A stretch of DNA of 64,000 bases from Bacteroidales bacterium (GTDB lineage: Bacteria > Bacteroidota > Bacteroidia > Bacteroidales > FEN-979): NCBI GenBank assembly GCA_963662525.1, contig OY759717.1:915436-979435 (forward strand). Direction: 5' to 3'. Below the pieces are notes generated by a model. That model made no database searches and was not told the DNA's origin. It saw only the letters and a list, made by a program, of their open reading frames with translations. Below, in pieces: positions 1 to 24,914 of this stretch. The position numbers and the translations under genes were made by a program. Each line of letters opens with the position of its first letter. Position 1 is the stretch's first letter.

Positions 1-560
1 CTGGTTTCCTTCAGGCCATCAGGACGGCTCTTGCCATCGAACTAAAAACCCGGATGAATGTCAACATGATCCATCAGCAGGAGAACGAACTGCTTACCCT
101 TGCATTCAAAGCATTCCGGACTGTCCCTAACCTGCAGATCCTGGCCGATTCAGTAGAAGACAGGCTGGGCGTGATATCGTTTTATATACCCGGAATCCAT
201 TATAACCTGATCGTTGGCATTCTCAGCGACCGCTTTGGTATACAGGTCAGAGGCGGCTGTGCATGTGCAGGTACTTACGGGCATTTCCTGCTGAATGTAA
301 GCCATGAGAAATCAAAAAAAATCACCGAGAAGATTAACCAGGGAGATCTTTCCGAAAAACCAGGCTGGGTAAGGGTTTCCTTACACCCAACCATGACTTC
401 GGAAGAAATACTTTTTATGGCAGATGCACTGAAACAAATTGAAAAAAACCACTGGGATTGGGAAAAAGATTACTCCTATAATAAACACACCAACGAATTT
501 CAGCATAAATCCAAAATTATCATTGAAAATCAGGCAGATAACTGGTTCCATCTGCAATAA
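1..560 (+). CDS. Class V aminotransferase / cysteine desulfurase-like PLP enzyme, C-terminal part (5' end outside window)
   Basis: Reading frame is open from the window edge (GFLQAIRTALAIELKTRMNV...). C-terminal domain motifs RGGCACAGTYGHFLL and VSLHPTMTSEE are typical of class V fold enzymes. Confidence 0.6.
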   Translation, partial: GFLQAIRTALAIELKTRMNVNMIHQQENELLTLAFKAFRTVPNLQILADSVEDRLGVISFYIPGIHYNLIVGILSDRFGIQVRGGCACAGTYGHFLLNVSHEKSKKITEKINQGDLSEKPGWVRVSLHPTMTSEEILFMADALKQIEKNHWDWEKDYSYNKHTNEFQHKSKIIIENQADNWFHLQ

Positions 561-640: not shown

Positions 641-892
641 ATGCATTGTCCAAACTACGGTAACTGCCAGCTGATTCATATTGCAGGATTCGTCGAATCT
701 GAATCACTTCGTGAAGAGTATATGCAATCCTACTGTACCAACCCTCAGGAACACTGGCAATGTTGTAAACGTTACCAAACCAATAGCGTCCTTCATTTTT
801 GTCCGGATTTTGTTTTTCCTGATACAACTTTAAACCTGAGCGAAATCTTGGACAAGTTTGATGAGGAACCTTTAAAAACAAATGATCTGTAA
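641..892 (+). CDS. Small cysteine-rich hypothetical protein (CPNYGNC ... YCTNPQEHWQCC ... FCPD)
   Basis: 83-aa ORF with 7 Cys, ending 10 nt before the dsrC-like start. I recognise no family. Confidence 0.35.
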   Translation: MHCPNYGNCQLIHIAGFVESESLREEYMQSYCTNPQEHWQCCKRYQTNSVLHFCPDFVFPDTTLNLSEILDKFDEEPLKTNDL

Positions 893-902
893 TAATATTA
901 TC

Positions 903-1220
903 ATGGCTACAATTGAAATTGAAGGAAAAATAATTGAAGTTGACGGAGATGGTTTTTTATCCGATCCGACCATCTGGAATAAAGAACTTGCAGCGGCCAT
1001 TGCAAGATTTGACGGAATCCAGGAAATGAATGAGAAACACTGGGCTATCGTAAAAATAATCCGTTCCAACTGGGAAGAAAAAGGGATGGCTCCCATGATC
1101 CGTGTAATTTGTCAGCAAACCGGCGTTAAACTTCGGGAAATATACGAGTTGTTTCCTCTTGGACCTGCCCGCGGTGCATGCCGGGTTGCCGGATTACCGA
1201 AACCCGATGGTTGTGTTTAA
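903..1220 (+). CDS. dsrC: DsrC/TusE-family sulfur relay protein, DsrC-type with both conserved cysteines
   Basis: C-terminus is ...GACRVAGLPKPDGCV: a penultimate Cys plus a second Cys 11 residues upstream, as in bona fide DsrC. ATG at 903 (MATIEIEGK) is preferred over 882. Confidence 0.8.
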   Translation: MATIEIEGKIIEVDGDGFLSDPTIWNKELAAAIARFDGIQEMNEKHWAIVKIIRSNWEEKGMAPMIRVICQQTGVKLREIYELFPLGPARGACRVAGLPKPDGCV

Positions 1221-1234
1221 AATAAAAAGGTAGT

Positions 1235-1858
1235 ATGCATTGGTTTCAATTCCTCGCACTGCTCTCTTTAGCAGTATGTATTTCCTGTACATTATATCAC
1301 CTGATCCGGCTGATCCGCTTAGGCAAACCCCTGGATTATGCTCCATCTTCCGGTAAAACCTTACCAGCCATTCAGTATTCCTTCACAGGCGCCATGAGTC
1401 CTTTGAAAAAAGAATCTGCCTTCCTGCATCTCCCGACATACACTGCAGGTATACTGTACCATCTGGGAACCTTTCTTTCCATTCTGTTATTCTTCCTCTT
1501 CCTGGTTCAGATGACAATTCCGGCCAGTCTTGCTTATTTCTTTTCCGGATTTCTTCTCATCACTACAGTATGCGGAACCGGCATTCTGATCAAACGCCTT
1601 GCAAAAAAAGAACTTCGCAGCCTTTCAAGTCCCGACGATTATTTCTCTAACCTCCTGGTGACCCTTTTTCAATTGCTAACAAGCCTGCTCTTTTTCTTTC
1701 CATCCGTTCTGCCTTTCTACTATATCCTGACAAGTATCCTCCTCCTTTATTTCCCTATCGGGAAACTGAAACATGCTATTTATTTTTTTGCTGCCCGTTA
1801 TCATCTCGGCTTATTTTACGGACGGAGGGGAGTTTGGCCTCCAAAAAATTTATCATGA
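1235..1858 (+). CDS. Integral membrane protein, NarI/DsrM/HdrE-like putative di-heme b quinone-interacting subunit
   Basis: About 5 hydrophobic helices. His pairs sit in helix 2 (FLH...LYH) and helix 5 (KH...YH). Its stop overlaps the next gene's ATG (ATGA at 1855), and that gene is DsrK/HdrD-like. Confidence 0.45.
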   Translation: MHWFQFLALLSLAVCISCTLYHLIRLIRLGKPLDYAPSSGKTLPAIQYSFTGAMSPLKKESAFLHLPTYTAGILYHLGTFLSILLFFLFLVQMTIPASLAYFFSGFLLITTVCGTGILIKRLAKKELRSLSSPDDYFSNLLVTLFQLLTSLLFFFPSVLPFYYILTSILLLYFPIGKLKHAIYFFAARYHLGLFYGRRGVWPPKNLS

Positions 1859-3162
1859 CAACTCAGATGGGAACATTGAACGAAGAAACGGTAACAAAAG
1901 GACTGGAGGTTTTCGAAAACCTCTCCGACAGCAAGCTGATCACCCATCTCAATAGTTGTGTCCATTGCGGACTATGCGCGGAAAGTTGCATCTATTTTCT
2001 AGTTACAAAAGATGAACGCCTTACTCCAGCCAGGAAAGTAGATATCGTCTCATCCGTCTATCGCCGATATCATACTTTTACCGGAAAAGTATTTCCGTCT
2101 CTGGTTAATGCCCGTGACCTGGATGACGAAACCGCAAAAGAAATGGTGGATCTGCTCTTCGGCGCCTGTACAATGTGCGGCCGCTGTACATCACACTGCT
2201 CTATTGGCGTGGATATTACTTATCTCGTCAGGACCGGCAGGACCATGCTTTCAAATATGGGAATGGTCCCTGCAAGCCTTCAATCGACCGTCAATGCCGC
2301 TATTGATTCCGGCAACAACATGAGTATCCCAACTGAAGAGTTTGTAGATACCTTGAAATGGATGGAGGAAGAACTCATCGATGAAGTGAACGATCCCCGG
2401 GCTGTTATTCCAATCGATGAACCCGGTAAACGGATACTTTATACCCTGAATCCAAGAGAACCAAAATTCTATCCCCTCTCCATTGCTGCCATGGCAAAGA
2501 TATTTTTTGCTGCCGGAGAAAGCTGGACTTTATCGACAAAAATGTATGATGTTACCAATTATGCCTATTTCAGCGGAAACACGGATGAAGCCAGGATTAT
2601 CGCCGACAGGCTGCGGAAGGAAATGGAATCACTGAAATCACAAACCCTCGTTCTGGCAGAATGCGGACACGGATCCAGAGCTTTCCGCTGGGAAGCTCCG
2701 AATTATTTAAGGGATCATTTTCCTTTCGAAGTCACTACCAGCGTGGAAATCATTGCCAAATATATCCGTGAAGGCAGGATAAAACTCAACCCGGAAAAAA
2801 TAAAAGATATTGTCACTCTCCACGATCCCTGTAACCTGGTCAGAAGCGGAGGAATACTCCTCGAACAACGGTATGTATTACATCAGTTTCTGCACAACTT
2901 TGTCGAAATGACCCCACATGGAAACGACAACCATTGTTGCGGTGGAGGTGGCGGTCAGCTAGCCATGAGTGAATACAACGACAGACGACTGAAAATTGCC
3001 GAGATCAAAGCGGAACAGATCCGAAAAACAGGAGCAAAGGTTGTTGTAACCCCCTGTCATAACTGCGTTGACCAGCTGACACAAATCAATGTGACTTTCC
3101 AACTCGGAGTGCAGATAAAAACACTGGCAGAAATCGTTGCCGATGCCATTCTTCTGGATTGA
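1855..3162 (+). CDS. DsrK/HdrD-like Fe-S oxidoreductase (2x[4Fe-4S] + CCG domain)
   Basis: Ferredoxin motifs CVHCGLCAESC and CTMCGRCTSHC are followed by CCG-domain cysteines (HDPCN, HCCGGGGG, TPCHNC). The track start 1834 is a TTG; ATG 1855 overlaps the upstream stop. Confidence 0.75.
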   Translation: MTTQMGTLNEETVTKGLEVFENLSDSKLITHLNSCVHCGLCAESCIYFLVTKDERLTPARKVDIVSSVYRRYHTFTGKVFPSLVNARDLDDETAKEMVDLLFGACTMCGRCTSHCSIGVDITYLVRTGRTMLSNMGMVPASLQSTVNAAIDSGNNMSIPTEEFVDTLKWMEEELIDEVNDPRAVIPIDEPGKRILYTLNPREPKFYPLSIAAMAKIFFAAGESWTLSTKMYDVTNYAYFSGNTDEARIIADRLRKEMESLKSQTLVLAECGHGSRAFRWEAPNYLRDHFPFEVTTSVEIIAKYIREGRIKLNPEKIKDIVTLHDPCNLVRSGGILLEQRYVLHQFLHNFVEMTPHGNDNHCCGGGGGQLAMSEYNDRRLKIAEIKAEQIRKTGAKVVVTPCHNCVDQLTQINVTFQLGVQIKTLAEIVADAILLD

Positions 3163-3202
3163 TATTTCTGAAACGTGAAAAACACAGCATAATACAAAAT
3201 TT

Positions 3203-4363
3203 ATGAGCGACCTGATCTACCTCGACAATTCCGCAACAACTTTCCCAAAACCGGATGCGGTCTATGATTTCATGTACAACTTCTATAAAAAACACGGAGT
3301 AAGTCCGGGACGCTCAGGCTTCGATGCAGCTTTAGAAACTGAAGAAGTGGTTCATAAAACCCGCAAAATGCTGACAGATCTCTTTCATGGAGATGATCCG
3401 AACAGGTTGACCTTCAGCTATAATGCCAGTGATTCCCTGAATATGATCCTGCAGGGTCTTGCCGAGAAAGGCGATCATGTGATCACGACCATGCTGGAGC
3501 ATAATTCTGTGTTGCGGCCATTGCATCACCTGCATATCAATGGCATCATTGAATTAACGCATATCCCTTTCGACCATCATGGTTATGTGGATCCGGATGA
3601 CATTAAAAAGGCAATACAGACAAATACCCGGATGGTAGTGGTTAACCATTGTTCCAATGTTATCGGAACCGTTCAACCCCTAGCGGCCATCGGAAAGATC
3701 TGTAAAGATGCTGGCGTTCTGTTTATCGTTGACAGCAGCCAAAGCGCCGGAGCCATCCCTATCGATATGAAAGTCATGAATATCGATGTGCTGGTTTTTA
3801 CCGGTCATAAATGTCTGATGGGACCTACCGGTATCGGTGGTTCCTATGTAATGGAAAATGTACCGGTGAAGGGAACCCGTTTTGGCGGAACCGGAGTGCG
3901 CTCTGCCCAAAAAACACATCTGGTTGAATTCCCCTACCGCCTTGAATGCGGCACCCTCAACCTGGTGGGTGTTGCCGGTCTCCATGCGGGATTGAAATGG
4001 GTGCTGGAACAAGGCATAGAAAACCTCCACCAACAGGAGATACTCCTTTGGGATAAACTCAGGAAAGGCGTTCAGGATATTGAAAATATAATCACATATT
4101 GCGCCGAAAGTACTGAAAACCAAAATCCTGTACTGAGCCTTAACATCAAAGGATTCGAATCAGGCGATGTGGGGACCATGCTGGACGTAGACTATAATAT
4201 CGCCTGCCGTACCGGATTGCAATGTGCTCCCCTGGTCCATGTTGGAATCGGCACTGATAAAATTCATGGAACCGTGCGTCTGAGCGTCGGTCCTTTCAAT
4301 ACTGAAGCCCATATCGATGCTGCCATCCAGGCAATCAGTGAGATCGCTTCTATCCGGAGATAG
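3203..4363 (+). CDS. Cysteine desulfurase (class V aminotransferase, NifS/CsdA-like)
   Basis: IYLDNSATT N-terminus, PLP-lysine motif FTGHKCLMGPTGIGG and active-site loop ACRTGLQCAP. Confidence 0.8.
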   Translation: MSDLIYLDNSATTFPKPDAVYDFMYNFYKKHGVSPGRSGFDAALETEEVVHKTRKMLTDLFHGDDPNRLTFSYNASDSLNMILQGLAEKGDHVITTMLEHNSVLRPLHHLHINGIIELTHIPFDHHGYVDPDDIKKAIQTNTRMVVVNHCSNVIGTVQPLAAIGKICKDAGVLFIVDSSQSAGAIPIDMKVMNIDVLVFTGHKCLMGPTGIGGSYVMENVPVKGTRFGGTGVRSAQKTHLVEFPYRLECGTLNLVGVAGLHAGLKWVLEQGIENLHQQEILLWDKLRKGVQDIENIITYCAESTENQNPVLSLNIKGFESGDVGTMLDVDYNIACRTGLQCAPLVHVGIGTDKIHGTVRLSVGPFNTEAHIDAAIQAISEIASIRR

Positions 4364-4383
4364 ATTTAAATAAATTATTTTTA

Positions 4384-4402
4384 AATCGCTTTAATATCAC
4401 TA
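4384..4402 (+). promoter_or_regulatory. Conserved 19-nt box AATCGCTTTAATATCACTA upstream of the thioredoxin gene (copy 1 of 3)
   Basis: Near-identical copies occur at 32327-32345 and 36734-36752, all in the same orientation upstream of + strand genes. A TAtcTTTG -7 box lies at 4418-4425. Confidence 0.6.
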
Positions 4403-4438
4403 TTTCGAATTTCTTTTTATCTTTGTAAAAAAATCGTT

Positions 4439-4864
4439 ATGGTGATCACTTTTATTATTCTTGGAATTATCGTGTTAACCCTGGGAGTTCTGATCTTCCG
4501 TGCCATGCATAAAATGAAAAACCTGAAGGACATTCAGGAAAGTGAAAAAATCCTGATTCTGACCGATCAGAATTTTTCAGATAAAATAAAAAGCGGAGTG
4601 GTATTGGTGGATTTCTGGGCCTCCTGGTGCATGCCCTGTAAATTGATGGTCCCGGTACTGAATGAACTGGCAGAGGAACCAGATCTGAAGGTTACCATCG
4701 CCAAAGTTAATGTAGATGAAGCAAAAGCGACCGCTTCTAAATTCAATATCCGTAGTATTCCAACTATTGTTCTGTTTAAAAACGGTAAAGAAATCCATCG
4801 TTTCGTGGGTGTAAAAACAAAAGATTACCTGCTCAGGGAACTCGACCGCAGAACAAAGTTATAA
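4439..4864 (+). CDS. Membrane-anchored thioredoxin
   Basis: Single N-terminal TM helix followed by a thioredoxin fold with WASWCMPCK (WCxPC). Confidence 0.85.
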   Translation: MVITFIILGIIVLTLGVLIFRAMHKMKNLKDIQESEKILILTDQNFSDKIKSGVVLVDFWASWCMPCKLMVPVLNELAEEPDLKVTIAKVNVDEAKATASKFNIRSIPTIVLFKNGKEIHRFVGVKTKDYLLRELDRRTKL

Positions 4865-4919
4865 TCCATCAGGCGTTGAAATAGAAAAATCTATATATTT
4901 GTGATATAGCATTTTTCCT

Positions 4920-6377
4920 ATGTCAAAAATCCTCATTCTCGGTGCCGGTATTTCCGGTCATACTGCTGCCACTATCCTGAAACGAAAATTGGGTAAAAAG
5001 CATGATGTTATCGTTGTTTCGCCCAATAAGTATTATCAATGGATCCCTTCCAATATATGGGTAGGCGTAGGAGAAATGTCGGTGGATCAGGTCAGGTTTG
5101 AACTGAAACCCGTATATGATAAAATGAAGATCATTTATCATCAGGCTAAAACCCTTGCCCTTTATCCAGAAGGGAATTCTGAACATGCCGGTCCGTTTGT
5201 GAAAATTGCTTACACCGATGAGCAGAATGCTGGAAAAAATGCTGAAATTGAATATGATTTTTGTATTAATGCTACCGGACCGAAATTAAATTTTGAAGCC
5301 ACGGAAGGCCTCGGACCTGAAAAATACAGCAATTCCGTCTGTACTTATAGCCATGCTTCCAAAAGCTGGAAAGACCTGCAGGAATGTATGGCAAAAATGG
5401 AGCAAGGTGAAAAGCAGCATATCCTTATTGGGATAGGCCATCCGACAGCTACCTGCCAGGGAGCTGCATTTGAATATATCCTCAATGTAGCCAACCAGAT
5501 CAGGAAAAGGAACTTGTCATCCATGGCTGAAATTACCTGGATCACCAATGAATTCGAACTGGGTGATTTCGGAATGGGAGGAGCCTTTGTCAAACGGGGA
5601 GGATATATCACCTCAACTAAAATTTTCACAGAATCCATTCTTGCCGAATATGGTATCCGTTGGATACGTCAGGCGGGGATAAAAAGACTGGAACCCGGAA
5701 AAGCTTTTTATGAAACCCTCGACGGGGAAAATCATGAAATTGAATTCGATTTCTCCATGCTTATCCCTGCATTCAGCGGTGTCGGGTTGAAAGCATATAA
5801 TAGATCGGAAGAAGATATCTCTGCGAATGTTTTTGCACCCAGCGGTTTCCAGAAAGTGGATGCAGATTACACACCGAAATCTTTTGAGGAATGGAAAGTG
5901 GAAGATTGGCCTTCAGTATATCAGAATCCTGTTTACCCGAAACTGTTTGCCACCGGTATTGCTTTTGCCCCTCCGCATCCGATCTCCAAACCCATGAGGA
6001 GTAAAAACGGGACGATAATCGCTCCGACTCCTCCCCGTACCGGCATGCCCAGCGGAGTTACCGGAAAAATAGTGGCCCTGAACATTGTTGACCAGATAAA
6101 AACCGGTAATACCAATTTCCATCACAAAGCCTCGATGGGAAAAATGGGTGCAGCCTGTATTGTCTCCGTCAATTATGGCATGACAAAAGGAATGGCCGCC
6201 ACCATGACCGTATTTCCTATTGTTCCCGACTGGGAAAAATATCCTGATTGGGGTAGAGACTTGAGCTATACCGTCGGGGAACCCGGTCTTGCCGGCCACT
6301 GGATTAAACTACTGCTCCATTTTATGTTCCTTTATAAAGCCAAATGCAAGCCTTTCTGGTGGATGATTCCTGAATAG
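4920..6377 (+). CDS. sqr: Sulfide:quinone oxidoreductase family flavoprotein
   Basis: Rossmann N-terminus KILILGAGISGHTAA. Candidate redox cysteines in TATCQGAAFEY and GKMGAACIVS. Amphipathic C-terminal tail. A TAtaTTTG box lies at 4894-4901. Confidence 0.7.
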   Translation: MSKILILGAGISGHTAATILKRKLGKKHDVIVVSPNKYYQWIPSNIWVGVGEMSVDQVRFELKPVYDKMKIIYHQAKTLALYPEGNSEHAGPFVKIAYTDEQNAGKNAEIEYDFCINATGPKLNFEATEGLGPEKYSNSVCTYSHASKSWKDLQECMAKMEQGEKQHILIGIGHPTATCQGAAFEYILNVANQIRKRNLSSMAEITWITNEFELGDFGMGGAFVKRGGYITSTKIFTESILAEYGIRWIRQAGIKRLEPGKAFYETLDGENHEIEFDFSMLIPAFSGVGLKAYNRSEEDISANVFAPSGFQKVDADYTPKSFEEWKVEDWPSVYQNPVYPKLFATGIAFAPPHPISKPMRSKNGTIIAPTPPRTGMPSGVTGKIVALNIVDQIKTGNTNFHHKASMGKMGAACIVSVNYGMTKGMAATMTVFPIVPDWEKYPDWGRDLSYTVGEPGLAGHWIKLLLHFMFLYKAKCKPFWWMIPE

Positions 6378-7491: not shown

Positions 7492-7968
7492 ATGAAACAA
7501 TTATCATTTATTCTTATCGCACTGATAGGCTTATTTGCCTGTAATCAACCCAAGGAAAAAACGATTATGCACGAAGGAATGCAGGTGGATCAAACGGTTC
7601 CCGCATGCTGTGTGAAAGACGGTATTTTTATTCATATTTCAGCGGGCTATGATAACCCACATAAAGCGTTAATGCCACTGAAAATGGCCATGATGATGGC
7701 CAAGGATAAAGATGTTATCCTTTATCTCGATATTGAAGCCGTGAAAATGGTTTTAAAAGATTCCAAAGACATGAAATTTGCCGATTTCCCTCCGCTGAAA
7801 GAATTGTTGAAACATTTGATTGACGCCAAAATCACCATCATGGCTTGTCCGACATGTTTAAAAATAGCAGGGAAAACAGGAGATGACCTGATGCCTGGCG
7901 TCATGGTAGCTGAAAAAGAGAAATTTTTCAATTTCACCAAAGGAAGGATAATAACCCTTGACTATTAA
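7492..7968 (+). CDS. DsrE/DsrF-like family lipoprotein
   Basis: Lipobox LIGLFAC. The DsrE-like fold signature shows as GIFIHISAG...PLKMAMMMA...ITIMACPTCLKIAG. Confidence 0.55.
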   Translation: MKQLSFILIALIGLFACNQPKEKTIMHEGMQVDQTVPACCVKDGIFIHISAGYDNPHKALMPLKMAMMMAKDKDVILYLDIEAVKMVLKDSKDMKFADFPPLKELLKHLIDAKITIMACPTCLKIAGKTGDDLMPGVMVAEKEKFFNFTKGRIITLDY

Positions 7969-17415: not shown

Positions 17416-18213
17416 ATGATCATGAGTCAACTTTTTGAAAAAATCCCCATGGAAGGGGTAAAAAACATTATCGTTATTGCCTCCGGCAAAGGGGGTGTAG
17501 GTAAATCTACGGTAGCAGCCAACCTGGCTATCGCCCTGGCCCGGAACGGATTTAAAACAGCCCTGGTGGATGCTGATATTTATGGACCATCTATTCCGAA
17601 AATGTTCGGTATTGAAGATGCCAGGCCGGATGTAAGTGCCATTGGCGACAAAGAAATGATGTACCCCATTGAAAAGTTTGGAGTGAAGATCATGTCGATC
17701 GGGTTCTTTGTAGCACCTCATCAATCCTTGATCTGGAGAGGTCCTATGGCCTCCAATGCCATCATGCAATTATTCGAGAATACCCAATGGGGAGATATCG
17801 ATTATATGATTATCGACTTCCCTCCGGGAACTGGCGATATCCAGCTTACAACGGTTCAAAAACTGAATCTTACCGGTGCCATTATGGTGACCACTCCCCA
17901 GGAAATTGCCGTAAATGATGCCCGTAAAGCTGCTTCTATGTTTCTCAATCCGGATCTGAAAGTGCCGGTTCTGGGCATCATAGAGAACATGTCGTGGTTT
18001 AGCCCGGAAAAGCATCCGGAAGAACAGTATTTCATTTTCGGTCAGGGAGGCGGTCTGAAAATGGCCAAAGAATTCAACACCAAATTACTGGGTCAAATTC
18101 CACTGGTCATGGAAGTCGGTGAAGCTGCCGAACAGGGCAAGAGTGTTTTCAGTCAGCGCAATAACACTGTTGTCAAAGCATTTGAGAAAATCGCCGAAGC
18201 TATTATTTCTTAA
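17416..18213 (+). CDS. Mrp/NBP35/ApbC-family Fe-S cluster carrier ATPase
   Basis: VIASGKGGVGKSTVAANLA, DADIYGPS, MIIDFPPGTGD. The ATG follows the upstream TAA directly. Confidence 0.8.
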   Translation: MIMSQLFEKIPMEGVKNIIVIASGKGGVGKSTVAANLAIALARNGFKTALVDADIYGPSIPKMFGIEDARPDVSAIGDKEMMYPIEKFGVKIMSIGFFVAPHQSLIWRGPMASNAIMQLFENTQWGDIDYMIIDFPPGTGDIQLTTVQKLNLTGAIMVTTPQEIAVNDARKAASMFLNPDLKVPVLGIIENMSWFSPEKHPEEQYFIFGQGGGLKMAKEFNTKLLGQIPLVMEVGEAAEQGKSVFSQRNNTVVKAFEKIAEAIIS

Positions 18214-19363
18214 CGCTTTTGGCTGACTGGATCAGGTTGGAAAAATAAATAGCAAAGGGACGATAAGCCAGATGCGACCATTTCGAAAAGGGAACTTCGA
18301 TCATCAACATGGGAAACAGGATCATCAGGTGGATGACATAAATGTAATAGGTGGCCATGACCATCCCGTTTACCCTGAAAATATGAACCAGAATTCCGGT
18401 AAGGGCTGTCAGGAAAAGCAGGATCAGAAAAGTCCAGTCAGTATAATGTGAAACTTTCGACTTCTCATTCTCTTTTTTCATACGAAGCACAGAGAAATAA
18501 ACAACCCCAAATACGAGTCCGAAAGTTGTATAATATCCTAAAAGCCTTTGTGGGTGCCACCAGGCATGGATTGTATCGGTCTGGAACCACCCCAGGAAAC
18601 CCACGATCATCGTAAACAGCATAACGTAACTCGACATCAGTAAAAAATGGATGATCCAATAATTCAGTTTCCCACTTTTTACTTTCTCATAAAATGATAT
18701 CTTCTCCGTTTCACACTCAACAAGTCTCCATTGAGAAGCAAAATGAAAAACCAATTTTCCAAATTCAGTGAAATACAATTTATAAGGAATCACTAAATCT
18801 TTCTGGCTTAACACAATCTTCCGGTACATATTAAAAACATTCGACAATAAAAAAAAGGATAATAGCCCTGCCATGATCCAATCTCCCATCTCGATGATCT
18901 GCCATGGGGCAAACGTATTCAACTTCACGCCTCCCTGTTCAGTCAACGCTTCAGTCATGGGACCATGAAAAAAAATAAACAGGAAAAGGATCAGCAGCGA
19001 AAGAAAAGCAATCGCTCCTAACTCCCAGATTTTTGATGTATAGAATTTTTTCGACAAACCCGTCCAATCATAGGATCCTGTCAGGTACCTGCGCATAGCC
19101 ATCATCAGCTGCCCGGGATCGGCATTCCGCGGACAGGTCTCGGTACATTCCCCACAGTAATAGCATAACCAGGGATCAACCGAAGATTCAAGCTCATCTT
19201 TCAGCCCTAAAAGACTATATCTTAATGTTTTCCTTGGGAAAGAATTTTTTTCATCAGAAAGAGAGCAGATCGCCGTACAATTTCCACAGTTATAGCAAGC
19301 ATTAAAATCCCCGGCTCCGTATTTCCGGATCTCATCGGCAAAAAATGGGTCAATCATTGACAT
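18203..19363 (-). CDS. QmoC-like fusion of an HdrC-type 2x[4Fe-4S] domain with an HdrE/NarI-like membrane domain
   Basis: N-terminal CYNCGNCTAICS and CYYCGECTETCP, followed by about 6 TM helices containing conserved His. Confidence 0.65.
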   Translation of the reverse strand: MSMIDPFFADEIRKYGAGDFNACYNCGNCTAICSLSDEKNSFPRKTLRYSLLGLKDELESSVDPWLCYYCGECTETCPRNADPGQLMMAMRRYLTGSYDWTGLSKKFYTSKIWELGAIAFLSLLILFLFIFFHGPMTEALTEQGGVKLNTFAPWQIIEMGDWIMAGLLSFFLLSNVFNMYRKIVLSQKDLVIPYKLYFTEFGKLVFHFASQWRLVECETEKISFYEKVKSGKLNYWIIHFLLMSSYVMLFTMIVGFLGWFQTDTIHAWWHPQRLLGYYTTFGLVFGVVYFSVLRMKKENEKSKVSHYTDWTFLILLFLTALTGILVHIFRVNGMVMATYYIYVIHLMILFPMLMIEVPFSKWSHLAYRPFAIYFSNLIQSAKSVKK

Positions 19364-19369
19364 CAGGAT

Positions 19370-21382
19370 TTATTTTTTGAGTTGATAGCGATAATACTCG
19401 TCATTATCATCCATTCCGGCAGGTTCAAGTAGGAAATATTTGTTCATGGTCATCATATGCCAGGTCACCAGTTCTGCCGGAATTGAAATTGCTTCTGCAA
19501 CCTGGCGTATCGTCCTGGGCTCATTATCTTTTAAGGTATCTATGATAGAACGCCATATAGATGGAAAGTCTTTCATTCCATGCCCTGATTCCATCTCTGA
19601 TTCTGTACCGTTTTCACCTTTACTCTTCAGATCGACCGCTTTCATAAATCCATCAATCATGCCTTCAATTTCATCATTGGTAAACTGAGCAAGATCGATG
19701 GCATCTATCGGACAAACGGGGGTACACATTCCACAACCCTTGCAAACGGCTTCATTGACCGAAGCCACAACTTTGCCATTGGTTTCCATCTGAAAGATGG
19801 CATCAAATTCACATACATCCTGGCATTTCCCGCAATAATTGCAACTTTCGGCATCAATCCTTGCAATGATGGGTTCTAATTCGAGGGTTCCTTTCCGGAT
19901 GATTGCGTTAATTTTGGCTGCTGCTGATAAGGAAGACTGAACTGACTCTGAGATGTTCTTCGGTCCCTGGCATGATCCTCCCAGGAAAATGCCATTGATG
20001 ACTGTCTCAACAGGCCGGAGCTTAGGATGAATCTCATTAAAGAATCTATCGTTGCCCATGGGAATTTTTAATTTTCCGGCCACATCAGAGCTATCAGATC
20101 TGGGAATCATACCATTAACCAGAATAAGCAGATCTACCAGGATATCCATTTCCTTCTTTTCGGTCAGGTAATCCCTGATCTTTATCCGCACACCTCCTTG
20201 TTCTGCTGTCGCCTGGGGAGGATCTTTCTCCTGGTACATCAGGTAAATATCGCCAAGCCTGGATGATTTTTCAAAGAGGATTTCCTGCTTGCCATAAGTC
20301 CTGATATCACGATACAGATGAAATGCTTTGATTCCGTTGAATTTTTCATGCATGCTGATGGAAGAATGGATGGCAGCAGTACAGCAAACCCTGGAGCAGT
20401 ATTTATTTTCACCCTTGGTCTGACGCATTCCTACACAATAAATATAGGCAACAGAACGAACGACTTTTCCATCAATTTTCAAGTTTCCATGAGAAGATTT
20501 GACCAACTTGTCAAAATCATTGATAGTAAGTATACTGGGGCTGGTTCCAAAGCCATATTCTTTTTCCAATGGCTGATAGGATTCATATCCGGTGGTCACC
20601 AGAATAGCACCTGCAGTAAGATTTAATACTTCTTCCTTCACGCCCTTTACATTTACATCTATCTTGAAATTTCCCAGGCTGCCACTCACTTTTACTACCT
20701 GAGCTGAAGTGAACAAGGTAATATTGGCTTGTTTACGTATTGTTTCGAGAAGGGTATCGATCAATTTCTGTCCTTCTTCATTGATCGGGAATAATTGACC
20801 TTTTCCCGCAAGACTTCCTCCAACCTGGTCTTCTTTCTCTATCAGGTAAACCTGATTTCCCATCCTGCCAAGATCGATGGCTGCACGCAAGCCGGCAACT
20901 CCTGCCCCTATGATAAGCACAGTTTTATGAGCAGTGATTTTAATATTTTCGAGTGCCTCTGAATGAGCCACTCGTCTGATTCCCGCCCTGATCAGCCCGG
21001 CTGCCTTATAAGATGCCTGATCCGGATGATCGGAGTGCGCCCATGAACATTGTTCTCGAACATTTACCTGAACATAGTTGTACGGATTTAATCCGGCCCG
21101 TTCAGTCACTCCCCTGAAAGTATGAAGGTGAAGTTTAGGAGAACAGGATGCTACCACGATTCCGTCAAGTTTCTGCGCCTGTATATCCTTCACCATTTCC
21201 TTCTGGTTGGAGTCTGCACAAGCGAACATGACGTTCTTGGAAACGACCACACCTTCTTCATCTCCGGCTATATCACGCAGTTGCTCAACATCCACATAAT
21301 CGGAAATATTTCCGCCACAGTGGCAGATATAGACCCCTATCCTTTGTTTTTTGGTTTTATCTTCCATAATCTGTTGGTTCAT
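19370..21382 (-). CDS. hdrA: HdrA-type heterodisulfide reductase flavoprotein subunit
   Basis: N-terminal domain RIGVYICHCGGNISDYVDV...VVASCSPKLH...REQCSWAH, FAD site VLIIGAGVAGLRAA, YIYCVGMRQ...YCSRVCC, and C-terminal CNYCGKCQDVC / CKGCGMCTPVCP. There is an extra ~100-aa tail. Confidence 0.75.
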   Translation of the reverse strand: MNQQIMEDKTKKQRIGVYICHCGGNISDYVDVEQLRDIAGDEEGVVVSKNVMFACADSNQKEMVKDIQAQKLDGIVVASCSPKLHLHTFRGVTERAGLNPYNYVQVNVREQCSWAHSDHPDQASYKAAGLIRAGIRRVAHSEALENIKITAHKTVLIIGAGVAGLRAAIDLGRMGNQVYLIEKEDQVGGSLAGKGQLFPINEEGQKLIDTLLETIRKQANITLFTSAQVVKVSGSLGNFKIDVNVKGVKEEVLNLTAGAILVTTGYESYQPLEKEYGFGTSPSILTINDFDKLVKSSHGNLKIDGKVVRSVAYIYCVGMRQTKGENKYCSRVCCTAAIHSSISMHEKFNGIKAFHLYRDIRTYGKQEILFEKSSRLGDIYLMYQEKDPPQATAEQGGVRIKIRDYLTEKKEMDILVDLLILVNGMIPRSDSSDVAGKLKIPMGNDRFFNEIHPKLRPVETVINGIFLGGSCQGPKNISESVQSSLSAAAKINAIIRKGTLELEPIIARIDAESCNYCGKCQDVCEFDAIFQMETNGKVVASVNEAVCKGCGMCTPVCPIDAIDLAQFTNDEIEGMIDGFMKAVDLKSKGENGTESEMESGHGMKDFPSIWRSIIDTLKDNEPRTIRQVAEAISIPAELVTWHMMTMNKYFLLEPAGMDDNDEYYRYQLKK

Positions 21383-21388
21383 TTCTCC

Positions 21389-24142
21389 TTACACCCCATT
21401 CCCACTTAAATAAGCTGCTACTTCAGATGCTGCTGCTCCCGCAGATAAAATGGAATCAGGAATATCCATGGGAGCGGCTGCCGTGCCTGCAACAAATACA
21501 CCTTTCATGCTGGTCCTGCTTGGATTTAGCATCAATTCCGGTTGTTTGATATAGCGGAATTCATCTAAAAGCGGCGACTCGCTTTTAAAGGAACGCATCA
21601 CACCATTATCAGGTAAAACCCCCACAGAAAGAACCACCAGGTCATGGGTGAATTCTTTCACTTTACCGGTTTCAATATTTTCCACTCGAAGTGCCAGATC
21701 TCCGCTGTGATTCTCCTTCTCGTTGATGCTGGAGACTTTTCCCTTAATAAAGTTAATCCCCATGGATTTCGACTGCTGATAAAATTCCTCATATCCTTTA
21801 CCGAAGGCACGGATATCAATATAATAGATGGAGATATCAGCCATGGGTAGCGCCCCCATCAGTAATTGTGCCTGTTTGATCGAGTACATGCAGCATATCT
21901 GTGAGCAGATGGGATTGTTAACCGCGGCTAGGTTGCAGCTTCGGAAATTCTCGAGACTACTGTCACGCGATCCGGTACATAAAATATAGGCAATATTCCC
22001 GGGTGCCTTGCCATCGCCGGGACGCAGAACATTATTATAAGGACGCGTAGGAGCAATGATCCTGTCCATCTGCAGGGAATCAATTACATTGGCAAATCTT
22101 ATAGAATTATATTGTGGCTTATGTTCAGGTTTGAAAAGCTGGAATCCTGATGCAATAATTACAGCGCCCACATGAGCTTTGACTTTTTCTGTTTTCTGTG
22201 AGAAATCTATAGCAAAAGCTGGACAGGCGGAAATACATTGATGACACTCCCGGCAATTGCTGCAATCAAGGCAGCGTAACGTACTCTGGTGAACTTCTTC
22301 CTCTGTGAAAGTCAACTCTACTTCTTCGAAATCCTGGATCCTTTCTGCAACAGGCCTGACTTTGTCACTCAAAGCTGGCTGATGTAAAATACCGGGCCTG
22401 GATAAAATAGTATTTTTATCGATTGCCGGAAGCTTATCTCCGAATTCATAATTACCCAGGTCAAGTCCCTGCAAATATTTATCTATATAATACGCTGCTC
22501 TTTTACCCTGACCTGCTGCTTCTATGATCGTACTTGAACCGCTAACCGAATCACCACCGGCAAAAAGCCAGGAAAAGGAACATTGCATCGTATTGGAATC
22601 GACTTTTATCCGGCCATCTTTTTCCAGATCCAATTCCTTTTTGAATGGAGAAGTGGTTGGGTATAAACCGATAGCCTCAATCACCAGATCAACATCTTCG
22701 GTATATTCCGAACCTTTAACTTCCACCGGTTTTTTCCTGCCACTGGCATCCGGTTCACCTAATTTCATCTTGATCATTACTGCCTGGCTGATCTTTCCAT
22801 CTGTTCCGGAAAAACTTATTGGATTTCTAAGCAGCTGAAAAACAACACCTTCATCTTCTGCTTCCCTGATCTCTTCTTTCCATGCCGGCATCTCTTCCCG
22901 GCTTCTGCGATAAATAATGGATACTTTTACAGTCCCCAGTCTCATGGCAGTACGGGCCGAATCCATGGCAGTATTCCCACCGCCAATAACCATTACTTTC
23001 TTTCCCTTCAGATTGATTTTTGTACCGATTTTTGAATCTCTCAGGAAATCAAGACAAGAAACTACCCCCTTCATTTCGCTTCCGGGGATATTCAGCTTGC
23101 TGGTCTGATGCGTTCCGACTGCAATAAAAATCGCATCAAAACCTGATTCTTTTAATTCCTTTAAATGTTCAACCGGGTGATTGCATGCGATTTCAACACC
23201 AAGAGCAGTAATATTTTCAATATCCCGATCGACCACGGTGTTAGGCAGACGATATTCAGGGAGGGTCAGCTTCAACATTCCTCCAGCTTCCGGAGCGGCT
23301 TCATAAATTTTTACCTGGTGGCCGTTCAGCGCGAGATGATATGCTGCAGTAAGTCCTGCCGGACCAGAACCTACAATAGCAATTTTTTTTTCGCTTGTTT
23401 TTTCAATGCTTTTTCTAGATGCTGCCGGATATTTAGTATAATAATTTTCTGTAAAAAATCTTTTTATCCTGCGGATATCCACAGGAGCTTCAAGGCTTGC
23501 CCGTGTACATTCTCCCTGGCAGGGAGCATAACACGCACGGCCAAGGCTGCCGGGTATCGGAATATCCTCCATATGAAGGTGAAAAGCTTCTTCATATTGG
23601 CCGTTTCTAACGAGAGAAATATATCCATACGGTTTAACGCCACCGGGACAGGCAGCAATGCAGGGGGCAGAAGTATCCTGCCGATCAATGAATGCAATGC
23701 GGGGACTCGCGAGACTGAATGGGATATAAGCCACTTTCCGGCCTGCCAGGTGATGATTGTATTCATCAGAGCGAACTTCAGGACAGGCCAATTCACACTC
23801 CTGACAACCCGTGCATGACTCTGGTTTGACGTATCTGGGATGTTTTGTAATTTCCAAATGAAAGCCTTTGTCATTTCTGGTAATGTTATCCAGGTCACTA
23901 CCCATCATCAGGGTAATATTGGAATGTCTGGCTGTTTCAGACATTTTCGGAGTCGTGATACAGGCGGCACAGTCCAGTGTAGGAAAAACCTTGCTTAATT
24001 GTATCATCTTACCTCCTATCGACAGGTCTTTCTCTACCAATAAAACCTGGTAGTCCATATTGGCCAGCGTTAATGCGGCCTCCTGGCCGGCAATACCACC
24101 ACCGATCACCAGTACATCAAATTTTTTTTCCTGATTGTTCAT
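21389..24142 (-). CDS. HdrL-like large HdrA homologue with inserted GltD/NfnB-type NAD(P)H module
   Basis: HdrA N-terminus FDVLVIGGGIAGQEAA and core YILCTGSRD...ICSQICCMY are split by a GltD-like block (CIAACPGG..., KIAIVGSGPAGLTAAYHL, VMVIGGGNTAMDSARTA, YRRSREEMPAWKEE). Confidence 0.7.
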   Translation of the reverse strand: MNNQEKKFDVLVIGGGIAGQEAALTLANMDYQVLLVEKDLSIGGKMIQLSKVFPTLDCAACITTPKMSETARHSNITLMMGSDLDNITRNDKGFHLEITKHPRYVKPESCTGCQECELACPEVRSDEYNHHLAGRKVAYIPFSLASPRIAFIDRQDTSAPCIAACPGGVKPYGYISLVRNGQYEEAFHLHMEDIPIPGSLGRACYAPCQGECTRASLEAPVDIRRIKRFFTENYYTKYPAASRKSIEKTSEKKIAIVGSGPAGLTAAYHLALNGHQVKIYEAAPEAGGMLKLTLPEYRLPNTVVDRDIENITALGVEIACNHPVEHLKELKESGFDAIFIAVGTHQTSKLNIPGSEMKGVVSCLDFLRDSKIGTKINLKGKKVMVIGGGNTAMDSARTAMRLGTVKVSIIYRRSREEMPAWKEEIREAEDEGVVFQLLRNPISFSGTDGKISQAVMIKMKLGEPDASGRKKPVEVKGSEYTEDVDLVIEAIGLYPTTSPFKKELDLEKDGRIKVDSNTMQCSFSWLFAGGDSVSGSSTIIEAAGQGKRAAYYIDKYLQGLDLGNYEFGDKLPAIDKNTILSRPGILHQPALSDKVRPVAERIQDFEEVELTFTEEEVHQSTLRCLDCSNCRECHQCISACPAFAIDFSQKTEKVKAHVGAVIIASGFQLFKPEHKPQYNSIRFANVIDSLQMDRIIAPTRPYNNVLRPGDGKAPGNIAYILCTGSRDSSLENFRSCNLAAVNNPICSQICCMYSIKQAQLLMGALPMADISIYYIDIRAFGKGYEEFYQQSKSMGINFIKGKVSSINEKENHSGDLALRVENIETGKVKEFTHDLVVLSVGVLPDNGVMRSFKSESPLLDEFRYIKQPELMLNPSRTSMKGVFVAGTAAAPMDIPDSILSAGAAASEVAAYLSGNGV

Positions 24143-24537
24143 GAGAGCTCAGCTAAAATTTTACTGAAATTGGCCATGTGACTTGCAAACGATTCTGCAC
24201 AAACGGAACACAGCGCAGCCATTCGGATACGCTTGGGGCTTATCCCCTTCTCCTTCATCTGTTTCTGTGCTTCTGTGATGATATTGTTGGTCAATTCCGG
24301 ACAGCGGGAGCTGAAGGAACATTCATGTCCATCAGCTGCAATAAAAACGCCATCGAAACCCTGCTCAAAAGCACGTAGTATCCACCTTGGTTTTATCCCC
24401 GATGAACAGGGAAGGCTGATTACATATACCGATGGCGAATAATGAATTTTACGCAAACCGGCCTGGTCAATACCCGGATCAGAAATCTTTTCGGTAGAGA
24501 AAACCAGAATCTTAGGTGATCTTTGGGCTAAATTCAT
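24139..24537 (-). CDS. MvhD/FlpD-like [2Fe-2S] electron-transfer subunit
   Basis: KILVFSTEK...ISLPCSSGIKPRWILRAFEQGFDGVFIAADGHECSF. The track start 24582 is a TTG, so ATG 24537 is preferred. The stop overlaps the HdrL start. Confidence 0.7.
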   Translation of the reverse strand: MNLAQRSPKILVFSTEKISDPGIDQAGLRKIHYSPSVYVISLPCSSGIKPRWILRAFEQGFDGVFIAADGHECSFSSRCPELTNNIITEAQKQMKEKGISPKRIRMAALCSVCAESFASHMANFSKILAELS

Positions 24538-24645
24538 GTTTTTAATTATAAATACCTCACCCGGGAAAGTTTTAGCGATCAACCTTCTGCTTCATTTTAT
24601 AAATGAACAAGGAAAAAATAATGGAGGTATCCGGGTGAGGAAAAA

Positions 24646-24897
24646 TTATGCTTTCTTAAGAAACAGTCGGGAGTAACTATCTTCTTCAACAATACCAAGG
24701 TATTCATGACTCATCTTCTGGCACCATCTGGGAATATCTATTTTTGTACCTTCATCAGCAGAATAAATCTCCATAATTTCACCGGATTCTATTTCCCCAA
24801 TGGCTTTCTTGGCAGCCAATAATGGTCCAGGACAGGCAGTACCACGTGCATCAACAATTTTATTCGATTTTAGATTTTTTAATTCTTCTAAGCTCAT
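24646..24897 (-). CDS. tusA: TusA-family sulfurtransferase
   Basis: VDARGTACPGPLLAAKKAI (CPxP motif) in an 83-aa protein. Confidence 0.8.
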   Translation of the reverse strand: MSLEELKNLKSNKIVDARGTACPGPLLAAKKAIGEIESGEIMEIYSADEGTKIDIPRWCQKMSHEYLGIVEEDSYSRLFLKKA

Positions 24898-24914
24898 TAT
24901 GTATTCTCCTTATA

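Follow-up and report, generated by a model that had tools for sequence, protein, structure and literature searches.

The window analyzed here, a 64,000-nt stretch of a Bacteroidales genome, opens with a run of plus-strand genes that includes a tight operon of four: a two-cysteine DsrC of 105 aa (903..1220), a 207-aa membrane protein, M, with a predicted NarI/HmcE/TmcC-like fold (1235..1858), a 435-aa putative catalytic Fe-S subunit of the DsrK/HmcF/TmcB type, K (1855..3162), and a 386-aa member of the cysteine desulfurase family, CSD2 (3203..4363). Upstream of this unit, positions 1..560 encode the C-terminal part of CSDup, a class V PLP enzyme of 487 aa, and an 83-aa Cys-rich ORF, orf83, occupies 641..892; downstream are a thioredoxin with a hydrophobic N-terminal membrane helix (4439..4864) and a 485-aa homolog of sulfide:quinone oxidoreductase (SQR; 4920..6377). 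An earlier note on this DNA had listed these genes, and we recovered every one of them at the same positions, including the two class V enzymes that flank the set (CSDup upstream, CSD2 downstream) and the succession of DsrC, the NarI-like M and K, a CCG protein of the DsrK/HdrD type whose start overlaps the stop of M (ATGA).

DsrC matches PF04358 (E = 3.7e-33) and TIGR03342 (98.7 bits). Its C-terminus reads ...GACRVAGLPKPDGCV, which corresponds to CysA-x10-CysB-Val with Cys93 and Cys104 as the two cysteines, and the arm GAC(R/K)(V/I)AGLPKPDGCV is kept in all 78 of the 78 DsrC family members, CysA being invariant in the family alignment. The ending KPDGCV is common to all three lineages described below, and solved DsrCs have KPTGCV. 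The assignment of this protein as a dissimilatory DsrC rather than a TusE, which the earlier note had based on the two cysteines, is upheld by similarity, as E values lie between 1e-23 and 1e-30 for solved DsrCs but reach only 5e-8 for TusE, and by its score on the TusE model of 67 bits against a cut-off of 191.

M matches the NCBIfam models HmcE (E = 4e-8) and TmcC (4e-4), and a sequence-level search gave no match to NarI or PF02665. When its AlphaFold model (pLDDT 81.5) was compared with the PDB using Foldseek, 8 of the 8 top matches were NarI, with a TM of approximately 0.5, and M is accordingly modeled as a membrane partner of the NarI fold. The heme-ligand histidines expected of such a protein are retained in part: His76 and His180 are near-universal across the wider family, whereas His65 and His190 are present in most members but missing from some. 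Because only two histidines are universal, the di-heme arrangement of NarI is not assured for M, and its heme content and link to quinone are uncertain.

K contains two CxxCxxCxxxC (4Fe-4S) motifs, an AECGH motif (C270/H272) with the presumed catalytic, non-ligating cysteine, and a single CCG motif (C326, CC361/362, C401xxC404), which is the predicted site of a non-cubane [4Fe-4S] cluster; all are conserved in essentially all 81 sequences. DsrK, HmcF, and TmcB likewise have one CCG motif and a conserved cysteine within (G/T)ECGH (PMC10861901). The NCBIfam scores of K are 297 bits for HmcF, 287 for TmcB, and 226 for DsrK, each under its cut-off (400 bits for DsrK; 750 and 735 for the HmcF/TmcB equivalogs), and in a neighbor-joining tree K forms a separate clade beside HmcF/TmcB and outside the DsrK branch. 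The score of 226 against 400 bits and this placement rule out DsrK proper, so that of the description of K as DsrK-like the DsrK/HdrD-type CCG architecture stands but the identity with DsrK does not. The last gene of the operon, CSD2, matches TIGR01977 with 426 bits (cut-off 377), and its closest solved homologs are group II cysteine desulfurases (5b7s, E = 6e-53). The PLP lysine (GHK203) and the catalytic cysteine C341 are conserved, RTGLQC341A aligning with RSGHHCA of a solved homolog, and CSD2 is therefore predicted to be a group II cysteine desulfurase.

To judge how general this arrangement is, we rely on the 80 best loci from 388 species with a K relative. The order DsrC-M-K-CSD2 recurs in these loci, where the median distances between successive genes are 14, 3, and 33 bp. 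The four-gene set is intact wherever the contig is long enough except for two loci without a CSD2 match; CSD2 adjoins K in 76 of the 80. This recurrence is far beyond chance. The carriers of the operon are many species of anaerobic Bacteroidales and Ignavibacteria. The same four genes occur in different orders in two more distant lineages, one in which the desulfurase is convergent to DsrC-M-K (L090/L091) and one in which it comes first with DsrC-M-K after it (L092), and the desulfurases of these lineages are 56% and 48% identical to CSD2, respectively. An orthologous class V enzyme is the sole invariable partner of DsrC-M-K, and the link survives three gene orders. Among relatives we also find a K::DsrC-like fusion and M::K fusions. 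The earlier note knew of no described pathway of this kind in Bacteroidota, and our literature search found no account of the cassette or of its gene arrangement.

The accessory genes are far less constant. The window cuts off the start of CSDup (PF00266, E = 1.7e-9 for the fragment), which has the Cys motif GGCACAG; two loci that are 100% (L083) and 99.9% (L088) identical to the window carry it at its full 487 aa. It adjoins the core in approximately 31 of the 80 related loci, and an orf83 tblastn match does so in 33. The conserved extent of the cassette is therefore smaller than first described: DsrC-M-K-CSD2 is kept, but orf83 and the 487-aa enzyme are found in only about 40% of loci. A called gene in public collections, orf83 has five invariant cysteines (C3, C9, C32, C42, and C54), gave no match in Pfam and NCBIfam searches, and yielded an unreliable AlphaFold model (pLDDT 47). 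The thioredoxin (TIGR01068, 120 bits, cut-off 96.8; WCMPC) lies beside the core only in the window locus, in L017, and partly in L022, approximately 2 of the 80 related loci. The SQR homolog matches the Aquifex SQR (3hyv) at E = 1e-33 and the Acidithiobacillus SQR at about 2e-29, with cysteines at both aligned SICT/AICI sites, and of the 80 loci only L017 and L022 have a type I SQR close to the core, encoded there on the opposite strand. Both flanking genes are thus present here as reported, but because they are so seldom near the core elsewhere, the part of the earlier model that was built on them is not general.

Several known systems resemble the cassette. One group is formed by the minimal DsrMK complexes (DsrM-1 type) that accompany DsrC in sulfate/sulfite reducers among Gram-positive bacteria and archaea. 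They have in common with the cassette a two-cysteine DsrC, a NarI-type membrane subunit in the absence of J, O, and P, and a cytoplasmic partner in which two cubane clusters are combined with a single CCG motif and the ECGH cysteine; the predicted activity, that of a quinol:DsrC-sulfur oxidoreductase, is shared as well. Unlike these, the cassette has no visible DsrAB partner and has a cysteine desulfurase as its operon partner, K fails the DsrK model and falls outside its branch, C-H-N-C-x-D in K replaces the C-A-I-C-K of three model-confirmed DsrK references, and the DsrC arm has Asp rather than Thr at position -3. The Desulfovibrio proteins TmcBC and HmcEF, parts of the Tmc and Hmc transmembrane complexes, are the best profile matches of K and M, form the sister branch of K, and share the CHNC signature, single CCG motif, and ECGH motif; however, K scores far under their equivalog cut-offs, and the cassette lacks a periplasmic cytochrome c (TmcA/HmcA) or any further Tmc/Hmc subunit. 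We know of no sulfate reduction in the host group of the cassette, unlike in the Desulfovibrio hosts of Tmc and Hmc. As in SufS-SufE, CsdA-CsdE, and IscS-TusA-TusBCD-TusE, a group II class V desulfurase gene stands beside one for a small Cys-bearing carrier, and TusE and DsrC belong to one Pfam family, but the two-cysteine carrier of the cassette is paired with a membrane redox complex and lacks a linked biosynthetic end-user. Finally, methanogen HdrDE and Mycobacterium smegmatis EtfD (9ojn) pair a NarI/HdrE-type membrane domain with an HdrD-type Fe-S/CCG domain that communicates with the quinone or methanophenazine pool, and the M::K fusions resemble EtfD; in contrast to K, HdrD, the reductase of CoM-S-S-CoB, has two CCG motifs, the substrate oxidized by EtfD is ETF, and the match of K to 9ojn is weak (E = 1e-8) and covers the CCG part only.

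The best reading of the locus, in our view, is quinone-linked reduction of DsrC sulfane sulfur fed by the cysteine desulfurase. We consider it a little short of an even chance that the product of the locus is a membrane-bound persulfide reductase with DsrC at its center, working without dissimilatory sulfite reductase.

An alternative, which we hold to be unlikely, is that the cassette is the cytoplasmic end of zero-valent sulfur reduction (sulfur, polysulfide, or thiosulfate respiration), with sulfane sulfur passing via YeeE/YedE, rhodanese, TusA, DsrE2, or SQR to DsrC and then to M-K, and CSD2 acting mainly as a sulfurtransferase or minor donor rather than as the sulfur source. The wider neighborhood is consistent with this. 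Immediately upstream of the window are a PsrC/NrfD-like gene, two YeeE/YedE halves, and a rhodanese, and family matches identify a linked second sulfur-trafficking/redox operon on the minus strand (18203..25460) that encodes DsrE2-like, TusA, MvhD/FlpD, HdrA::GltD fusion, HdrA-like, and QmoC-like proteins; in 11 of the 80 loci, the first five genes of an operon of this type come directly after CSD2 and share its strand. In seven loci a type III SQR, DUF1641, a TusE-like protein, and DsrE2 are upstream of the cassette, and record titles place the carriers in sulfidic or anoxic habitats. However, these sulfur-gene neighbors differ from genome to genome and only the class V enzyme is constant, and CSD2 has all catalytic residues of a true desulfurase.

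It is also quite unlikely that CSD2 and DsrC form a biosynthetic relay that gives sulfur for tRNA thiolation, a thio-cofactor, or Fe-S assembly in the manner of TusE, with M-K merely re-reducing a DsrC disulfide or giving two electrons for sulfide release. Class V desulfurases are the classical sulfur donors in biosynthesis, public annotations label such DsrCs "tRNA 2-thiouridine synthesizing protein E", and a NifX-like gene adjoins the cassette in 12 loci and is present in the window together with Mrp and MinD-Fer4 genes of the Fe-S maturation type. Against this, the TusE score is far below the equivalog cut-off and dissimilatory DsrCs are much closer, CysA never varies, the cassette has no linked gene for TusBCD, MnmA, or a scaffold, its neighbors are of the dissimilatory type, and we know of no biosynthetic relay with a dedicated membrane quinone module.

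The opposite direction, in which M-K would oxidize a DsrC persulfide, derived from sulfide via SQR or from cysteine, and reduce menaquinone, is very unlikely. Going by general knowledge of their orders, the carriers are probably for the most part fermentative anaerobes, and although SQR is within the operon of the window and DsrMK(JOP) has been proposed to oxidize persulfurated DsrC in sulfur oxidizers (PMC8477390), the pathway would be a dead end with no reverse DsrAB or sHdr to take the DsrC trisulfide, and SQR is adjacent in just two to three genomes. An ordinary Dsr pathway, with dsrAB elsewhere in the genome and the desulfurase an unrelated neighbor, is highly improbable. We know of no sulfite reductase in Bacteroidales or Ignavibacteria. 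As the earlier note had stated, no dsrAB is visible among the window ORFs scanned, and the clustered ±8 kb flanks of related loci contain none either. DsrC with a DsrMK-type pair is the minimal set of companions of DsrAB, and some MAGs labeled Ignavibacteriae were reported to have reductive Dsr proteins (PMC8477390); however, K falls below the DsrK model and branches with HmcF/TmcB, the desulfurase link is retained in three gene orders, and among the 950 dsrAB genomes of one survey, those from Bacteroidota were Chlorobia and Kapabacteria only, with neither Bacteroidales nor Ignavibacteria in the list (PMC10591310). Selenium handling, with CSD2 as a selenocysteine lyase, DsrC as a perselenide carrier, and K reducing to selenide, is scarcely credible, as CSD2 belongs to a family (TIGR01977) that includes the selenocysteine lyase SclA but reaches only 322 of the 525 bits required by the SclA model, no selD or Sec-machinery gene recurs in the neighborhoods of related loci, and, for a trace element, building a membrane quinone module would be costly.

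Under the favored reading of a DsrC persulfide reductase, CSD2 would strip sulfur from L-cysteine, giving alanine and an enzyme persulfide, as the 487-aa class V enzyme may likewise do in some genomes. The persulfide would then pass to Cys104 of DsrC, comparable to transfer from SufS to SufE or from IscS through TusA and TusBCD to TusE; we know of no DsrC for which persulfide transfer from a cysteine desulfurase has been shown. TusA, DsrE2, rhodanese, the TusE-like protein, and SQR, where near the core, probably supply the same DsrC pool. The loaded arm would enter K, whose non-cubane cluster would reduce the sulfane sulfur to H2S, possibly via Cys270; alternatively, Cys93 would resolve the persulfide to a DsrC disulfide that K then reduces. 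Menaquinol, oxidized at M, would be the electron source. These steps have counterparts in related complexes: experiments showed that DsrMKJOP has menadiol:DsrC-trisulfide oxidoreductase activity and liberates sulfide (PMC10861901), the conserved cysteine of DsrK has been observed persulfidated with a sulfur relay proposed, and the DsrM of minimal DsrMK complexes is predicted to oxidize quinol in the manner of NarI (bioRxiv 10.64898/2026.08.25.746951).

The proposed steps would sum to the net reaction cysteine + MKH2 -> alanine + H2S + MK. The SQR in the window operon would oppose this direction, turning sulfide into sulfane sulfur with reduction of quinone. By a rough estimate from textbook free energies, the cysteine/alanine + H2S couple lies near -100 mV, slightly below menaquinone at -74 mV, so quinol-driven reduction would be near equilibrium with perhaps little or no energy conserved. 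An operon of DsrC, a membrane reductase, and a cysteine desulfurase suggests that sulfur from cysteine may reach sulfide by a quinone-linked route not described before, and, if this is true, the net reaction would be an electron sink and may add to the proton-motive force.

All cassette and accessory genes of the locus lie on the plus strand of the window and are separated by short intergenic gaps. The 3′-terminal portion of a gene for a class V PLP enzyme (1–560) is followed by an 83-aa Cys-rich open reading frame (orf83, 641–892), DsrC (903–1220; PF04358, E = 3.7e-33), a membrane protein of 207 aa (M, 1235–1858) with weak HmcE and TmcC matches, an iron–sulfur protein of 435 aa (K, 1855–3162) that matches the HmcF, TmcB, and DsrK models below their cut-offs, and a cysteine desulfurase of 386 aa (CSD2, 3203–4363; TIGR01977). 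A thioredoxin with a hydrophobic helix at its N-terminus (4439–4864), which passes TIGR01068, and an SQR homolog of 485 aa (4920–6377) that matches the Aquifex SQR lie further downstream. The stop codon of M and the start codon of K overlap as ATGA. The gene set listed in an earlier note is confirmed by the gene coordinates, the profile searches, and the match of the SQR homolog to a solved SQR. A scan for sigma-70 consensus promoters and terminators returned a weak hairpin 3′ of the upstream class V gene and nothing else usable, the consensus not being informative for Bacteroidota promoters.

Using one genome per GTDB species, we found relatives of K in 388 species and examined the best 80, in which K is 66–84% identical to the window protein. 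By their labels, approximately 64 of these 80 loci belong to MAGs of Bacteroidales or of further Bacteroidota (Prolixibacteraceae, Rikenellaceae, and Lentimicrobiaceae among them) and 12 to Ignavibacteria; by their record titles, most of the 80 originate from anoxic lakes, sediments, groundwater, and digesters. One contig labeled "Alphaproteobacteria bacterium" (L009, SACF01000007.1) has the gene order of a Bacteroidales contig (L008), matches the window proteins at almost the same coordinates and identities as that contig does, and is probably a mis-binned or mislabeled MAG. Wherever the contig reaches, the order DsrC-M-K-CSD2 is constant in the best 80 of the 388 species, with median gaps of 14, 3, and 33 bp; the exceptions are two loci without a CSD2 match (L055 and L073). 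In the same best 80 of 388, the core is adjoined by orf83 in 33 loci, by the 487-aa class V enzyme in about 31, by a Crp/FNR regulator in 20, and by a thioredoxin in one or two, and a type I SQR lies near it on the opposite strand in two. Because this adjacency is limited to two or three genomes, the SQR and the thioredoxin were rejected as core parts, and the earlier view that these flanking genes serve the system does not apply generally. An ECF sigma/TatC block is located directly 3′ of CSD2 in several relatives (L008, L012, L014, L020, and L022). In the window the corresponding genes, which encode an ECF sigma factor, a putative anti-sigma protein, a Metal_resist protein, TatC, and neighboring membrane proteins (37267–40345), lie approximately 33 kb from the cassette; this difference shows large-scale rearrangement around a stable four-gene core.

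The arrangement recurs in two more distant lineages. In one (L090/L091), where K has 50% identity to the window protein, DsrC-M-K is accompanied by a desulfurase gene in convergent orientation, whose product shares 56% identity with CSD2; in the other (L092), with K at 41% identity, a desulfurase (48% identity to CSD2) comes first and DsrC-M-K follows. In addition, relatives of K include fusion proteins (P0269 at L093, 2019–3668; P0271 at L094; P0284; and P0270). Among these fusions are a K::DsrC-like protein, the DsrC part of which lacks the terminal cysteines and which adjoins a PF02665 NarI protein and a separate DsrC, M::K proteins of 661–670 aa, and a fusion of K to a response-regulator receiver. 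The fusions support the view that M, K, and DsrC are coupled physically as well as functionally.

The window DsrC scores 98.7 bits against TIGR03342 (cut-off 53.5), which together with the PF04358 match places it in the DsrC family. It ends in GACRVAGLPKPDGCV and therefore has both redox cysteines in the canonical spacing, CysA-x10-CysB with CysB penultimate, and both are invariant in all 78 members. Relative to the -CV ending of solved DsrCs there is a single substitution (T to D), so that the protein passes the two-cysteine/DiSCo test for DsrC (AGLPKPTG(not N)CA, one mismatch allowed); the ending KPDGCV, with Asp where solved DsrCs carry Thr, is common to all three lineages. Solved DsrCs match the window protein with e values of 3.5e-30 to 8e-23 compared with 5.5e-8 for the TusE-type 7syb, and the TusE equivalog model is failed (67 bits, cut-off 191). 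The two cysteines and the far stronger matches to solved DsrCs than to 7syb uphold the earlier assignment to dissimilatory DsrC and not to TusE.

On NCBIfam models K scores 297 bits for HmcF (NF045711, cut-off 750), 287 bits for TmcB (NF045724, cut-off 735), and 226 bits for DsrK (NF045796, cut-off 400), and thus stays below every curated cut-off. It carries two ferredoxin-type 4Fe-4S motifs (C35xxC38xxC41xxxC45 and C105xxC108xxC111xxxC115), an AECGH motif (C270/H272), and a single five-Cys CCG motif (C326...C361C362G...C401xxC404), the cysteines of which are all invariant in 81 sequences. This is the full combination published for the DsrK, HmcF, and TmcB group, in which the conserved Cys of the (G/T)ECGH motif is non-ligating (Barbosa et al. 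2024, PMC10861901). The same work indicated that the ECGH cysteine is catalytic and showed that DsrMKJOP is a menadiol:DsrC-trisulfide oxidoreductase from which sulfide is released (Barbosa et al. 2024, PMC10861901). In a 2026 cryo-EM preprint the ECGH Cys was observed in persulfidated form and a sulfur relay to a single non-cubane cluster was proposed, and in minimal DsrMK complexes DsrM was predicted to oxidize quinol like NarI (bioRxiv 10.64898/2026.08.25.746951).

Several features set K apart from DsrK proper. In the AF0502-type DsrK of the Archaeoglobus fulgidus DsrMKJOP the last CCG Cys is Asp, whereas K keeps Cys (CHNC), as has also been reported for HmcF, TmcB, and the DsrK paralogs of dsrMK sets (PMC10861901). 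Two residues past CHNC, K has an invariant Asp, and the resulting CHNC-x-D is shared by K, HmcF, and TmcB, whereas the three reference proteins that pass the DsrK cut-off of 400 (P0287, P0298, and P0331) read C-A-I-C-K. In a neighbor-joining tree without support values, in which representatives from an exhaustive HMMER search were labeled by NCBIfam models, the clade of the window K and several unnamed lineages lie beside the HmcF/TmcB branch, to which the clade is sister, and separate from the sequences passing the DsrK model. On curated score and tree position we rejected the reading that K is DsrK. Of the earlier description of K as a DsrK/HdrD-like CCG protein, the motifs and the overlap with M stand, whereas K itself falls on the HmcF/TmcB side. 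A cytochrome c gene is absent from the annotated genes and the Pfam scan of the locus, and the other Hmc/Tmc subunits that define membership in those complexes were not found there.

M matches NCBIfam models weakly (HmcE, 33 bits, E = 4e-8; TmcC, 20 bits). In sequence comparisons with PF02665/NarI there was no Pfam match, a profile search of PDB sequences came back empty, and hhalign against Escherichia coli NarI returned a probability of 1%. By contrast, when the AlphaFold model of M (pLDDT 81.5) was compared with known structures by Foldseek, the best eight PDB matches were all NarI chains (probability 0.99–1.00, TM 0.47–0.52, E = 0.04–0.14). The predicted structure thus has a NarI-like five-helix fold by a modest match, and this fold comparison is the sole link to NarI; the 5-TM NarI-like protein proposed earlier is borne out in its predicted fold and not at the sequence level. 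In the DsrM/NarI family the heme ligands are four conserved His, a pair each on helices 2 and 5. Among 77 M sequences His76 is present in all, His180 in 76, His65 in 75, and His190 in 62, with Gln at the last position in 14; some family members have three His in total, and of these four histidines the sister lineages retain His76 and His180 only. From this pattern, one bis-His heme is plausible throughout the family, and a second heme is likely in most members and not in all.

CSD2 scores 426 bits against TIGR01977 (cut-off 377), its PLP lysine (GHK203) and catalytic Cys (RTGLQC341A) are conserved, and solved group II desulfurases align with it along its full length. These features point to a member of the cysteine desulfurase family, for which desulfurase activity and persulfide transfer to DsrC are predicted. 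Among the accessory proteins, orf83 has five invariant cysteines and no family match in Pfam or NCBIfam profiles; a word-based search identified 10 homologs, and its AlphaFold model (pLDDT 47.5) is unreliable. The SQR homolog aligns with the Aquifex SQR 3hyv over residues 4–290 (E = 1.2e-33) and keeps cysteines at two aligned SICT/AICI sites, and it fails the type III selenoprotein-subtype model, its sole NCBIfam SQR match (50 bits, cut-off 525).

The best-supported reading of these data, to which we give slightly less than an even chance, is a three-step relay. The desulfurase would remove sulfur from cysteine, the desulfurase-bound sulfur would pass to Cys104 of DsrC as a persulfide, and the DsrC-bound sulfane sulfur would be reduced to sulfide at K with quinol electrons delivered via M. 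K may use its ECGH cysteine for this directly, or it may act once Cys93 has converted the persulfide into a disulfide. The sequences show the protein features and the gene linkage; that sulfur is transferred, where the electrons come from, and which way the module runs are inferred. The cysteine/alanine + H2S couple lies at roughly −100 mV as estimated from textbook free energies; a quinol-driven reduction would therefore operate close to equilibrium, which weakens the idea of energy conservation.

The wider gene context bears on sulfur and redox chemistry as well. Contigs of the same strain, identical to the window (L083, 1–1766, and L088, 1–3202), extend the locus 3.2 kb beyond the window start and encode, directly 5′ of the 487-aa class V enzyme, a partial PsrC/NrfD-like polysulfide-reductase membrane subunit, two YeeE/YedE (Sulf_transp) halves, and a 212-aa rhodanese. 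On the minus strand, an operon at 18203–25460 encodes a DsrE2-like protein, TusA, MvhD/FlpD, an HdrA::GltD fusion of 917 aa (NAD(P)-binding), an HdrA-like protein of 670 aa, and a QmoC-like membrane Fe-S protein (200 bits on the qmoC model, cut-off 300). Judged from its genes, this operon resembles a quinone-interacting complex of the Qmo kind, combined with sulfur carriers and lacking AprAB, and its first five genes are found directly 3′ of CSD2 in 11 of the best 80 of the 388 species. In seven genomes (L002, L014, L016, L017, L020, L023, and L024) a second module about 3.5 kb upstream of the cassette comprises a type III SQR that scores 629 bits on the "selenoprotein subtype" model but carries Cys in these genomes, a DUF1641 protein, a 103-aa TusE-like DsrC homolog with the penultimate Cys only, and a DsrE2-like protein. 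The cassette is therefore embedded in sulfane-sulfur trafficking genes that vary between genomes. That the cassette serves to reduce zero-valent sulfur in general, the desulfurase of the constant core playing a side role, is unlikely in our assessment; a biosynthetic sulfur relay is somewhat less likely again, and an oxidative operation of the module, that is, in the direction opposite to the proposed relay, is improbable.

Other genes of the window were noted alongside these. A 158-aa DsrE/DsrF-like protein (7492–7968, plus strand; PF02635, E = 1e-6) carries at its N-terminus a signal containing a lipobox-like LFAC and may be periplasmic or a lipoprotein, which would be unusual in its family. 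An ArsP_2-type 10-TM permease is followed by a 210-aa HdrC-like 4Fe-4S protein and a 367-aa HdrB-like CCG protein (26264–28807, plus strand), which makes this a third CCG-type redox module in the window. The region 13967–18213 encodes a DUF134 protein, a NifX-like protein (PF02579), two CbiA/MinD-type ATPases with ferredoxin inserts, and an Mrp/NBP35 (NUBPL) ATPase, a type of cluster that recurs in anaerobes; in addition, 12 related loci have a weak NifX-like gene 5′ of the 487-aa class V enzyme. Side by side at 9699–13320 (minus strand) are genes for a ferritin-like protein, an MbnP-like protein, and a TonB-dependent receptor, which probably serve metal uptake or storage.

No NIR_SIR/DsrAB proteins were found among the window ORFs scanned, in agreement with the earlier remark that no dsrAB is visible, and no recurrent dsrAB was found in the regions flanking the related loci (best 80 of 388). 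In a survey of 950 dsrAB-encoding genomes the Bacteroidota carriers were Chlorobia and Kapabacteria only, and Bacteroidales and Ignavibacteria are unmentioned among the carriers (PMC10591310). Taken together, the window ORFs, the flanks of the 80 loci, and the published survey suggest that the source genome likely lacks dsrAB, and we consider a canonical Dsr role of the cassette very improbable. Selenium handling is the least probable reading: CSD2 fails the SclA selenocysteine lyase model (NF040779, 322 bits, cut-off 525) and there is no selD in the neighborhoods.

Full-text literature searches yielded no description of a DsrC/DsrMK/cysteine desulfurase cassette, in line with the earlier remark that the arrangement was not known as a described pathway in Bacteroidota. 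No curated family model names K or M, and public labels of the cassette proteins are "TusE," "hypothetical," "nitrate reductase gamma subunit," and "Fe-S oxidoreductase." By sequence, all parts of the cassette belong to known families; what we rate as new is a DsrC/HmcEF-TmcBC-like module that is partnered with a cysteine desulfurase in place of sulfite reductase.

DsrC and DsrMK are regarded as hallmarks of sulfur metabolism based on sulfite reductase and serve as markers in metagenome surveys, and to our knowledge DsrAB is not known from the lineages that carry the cassette. We tentatively propose, at odds well short of even, that the relay constitutes an unrecognized anaerobic respiration or electron sink in hundreds of Bacteroidales and Ignavibacteria species and in at least two distant lineages, in which cysteine sulfur loaded onto DsrC by the desulfurase would be the terminal acceptor of a minimal quinol-oxidizing HmcEF/TmcBC-like complex, yielding alanine and H2S without sulfite reductase. 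If so, DsrC and DsrMK-type genes would be unreliable metagenome markers of Dsr-dependent sulfur metabolism. The finding itself accounts for the current labels of the cassette proteins and makes it possible to correct them. A conserved desulfurase-coupled operon would separate DsrC/DsrK chemistry from sulfite reduction and would provide a three-protein system in which to test the reduction of protein-bound sulfane sulfur by a DsrK-type non-cubane cluster. For anoxic lakes, sediments, and digesters, it would also indicate a new way in which organisms form sulfide from organic sulfur.
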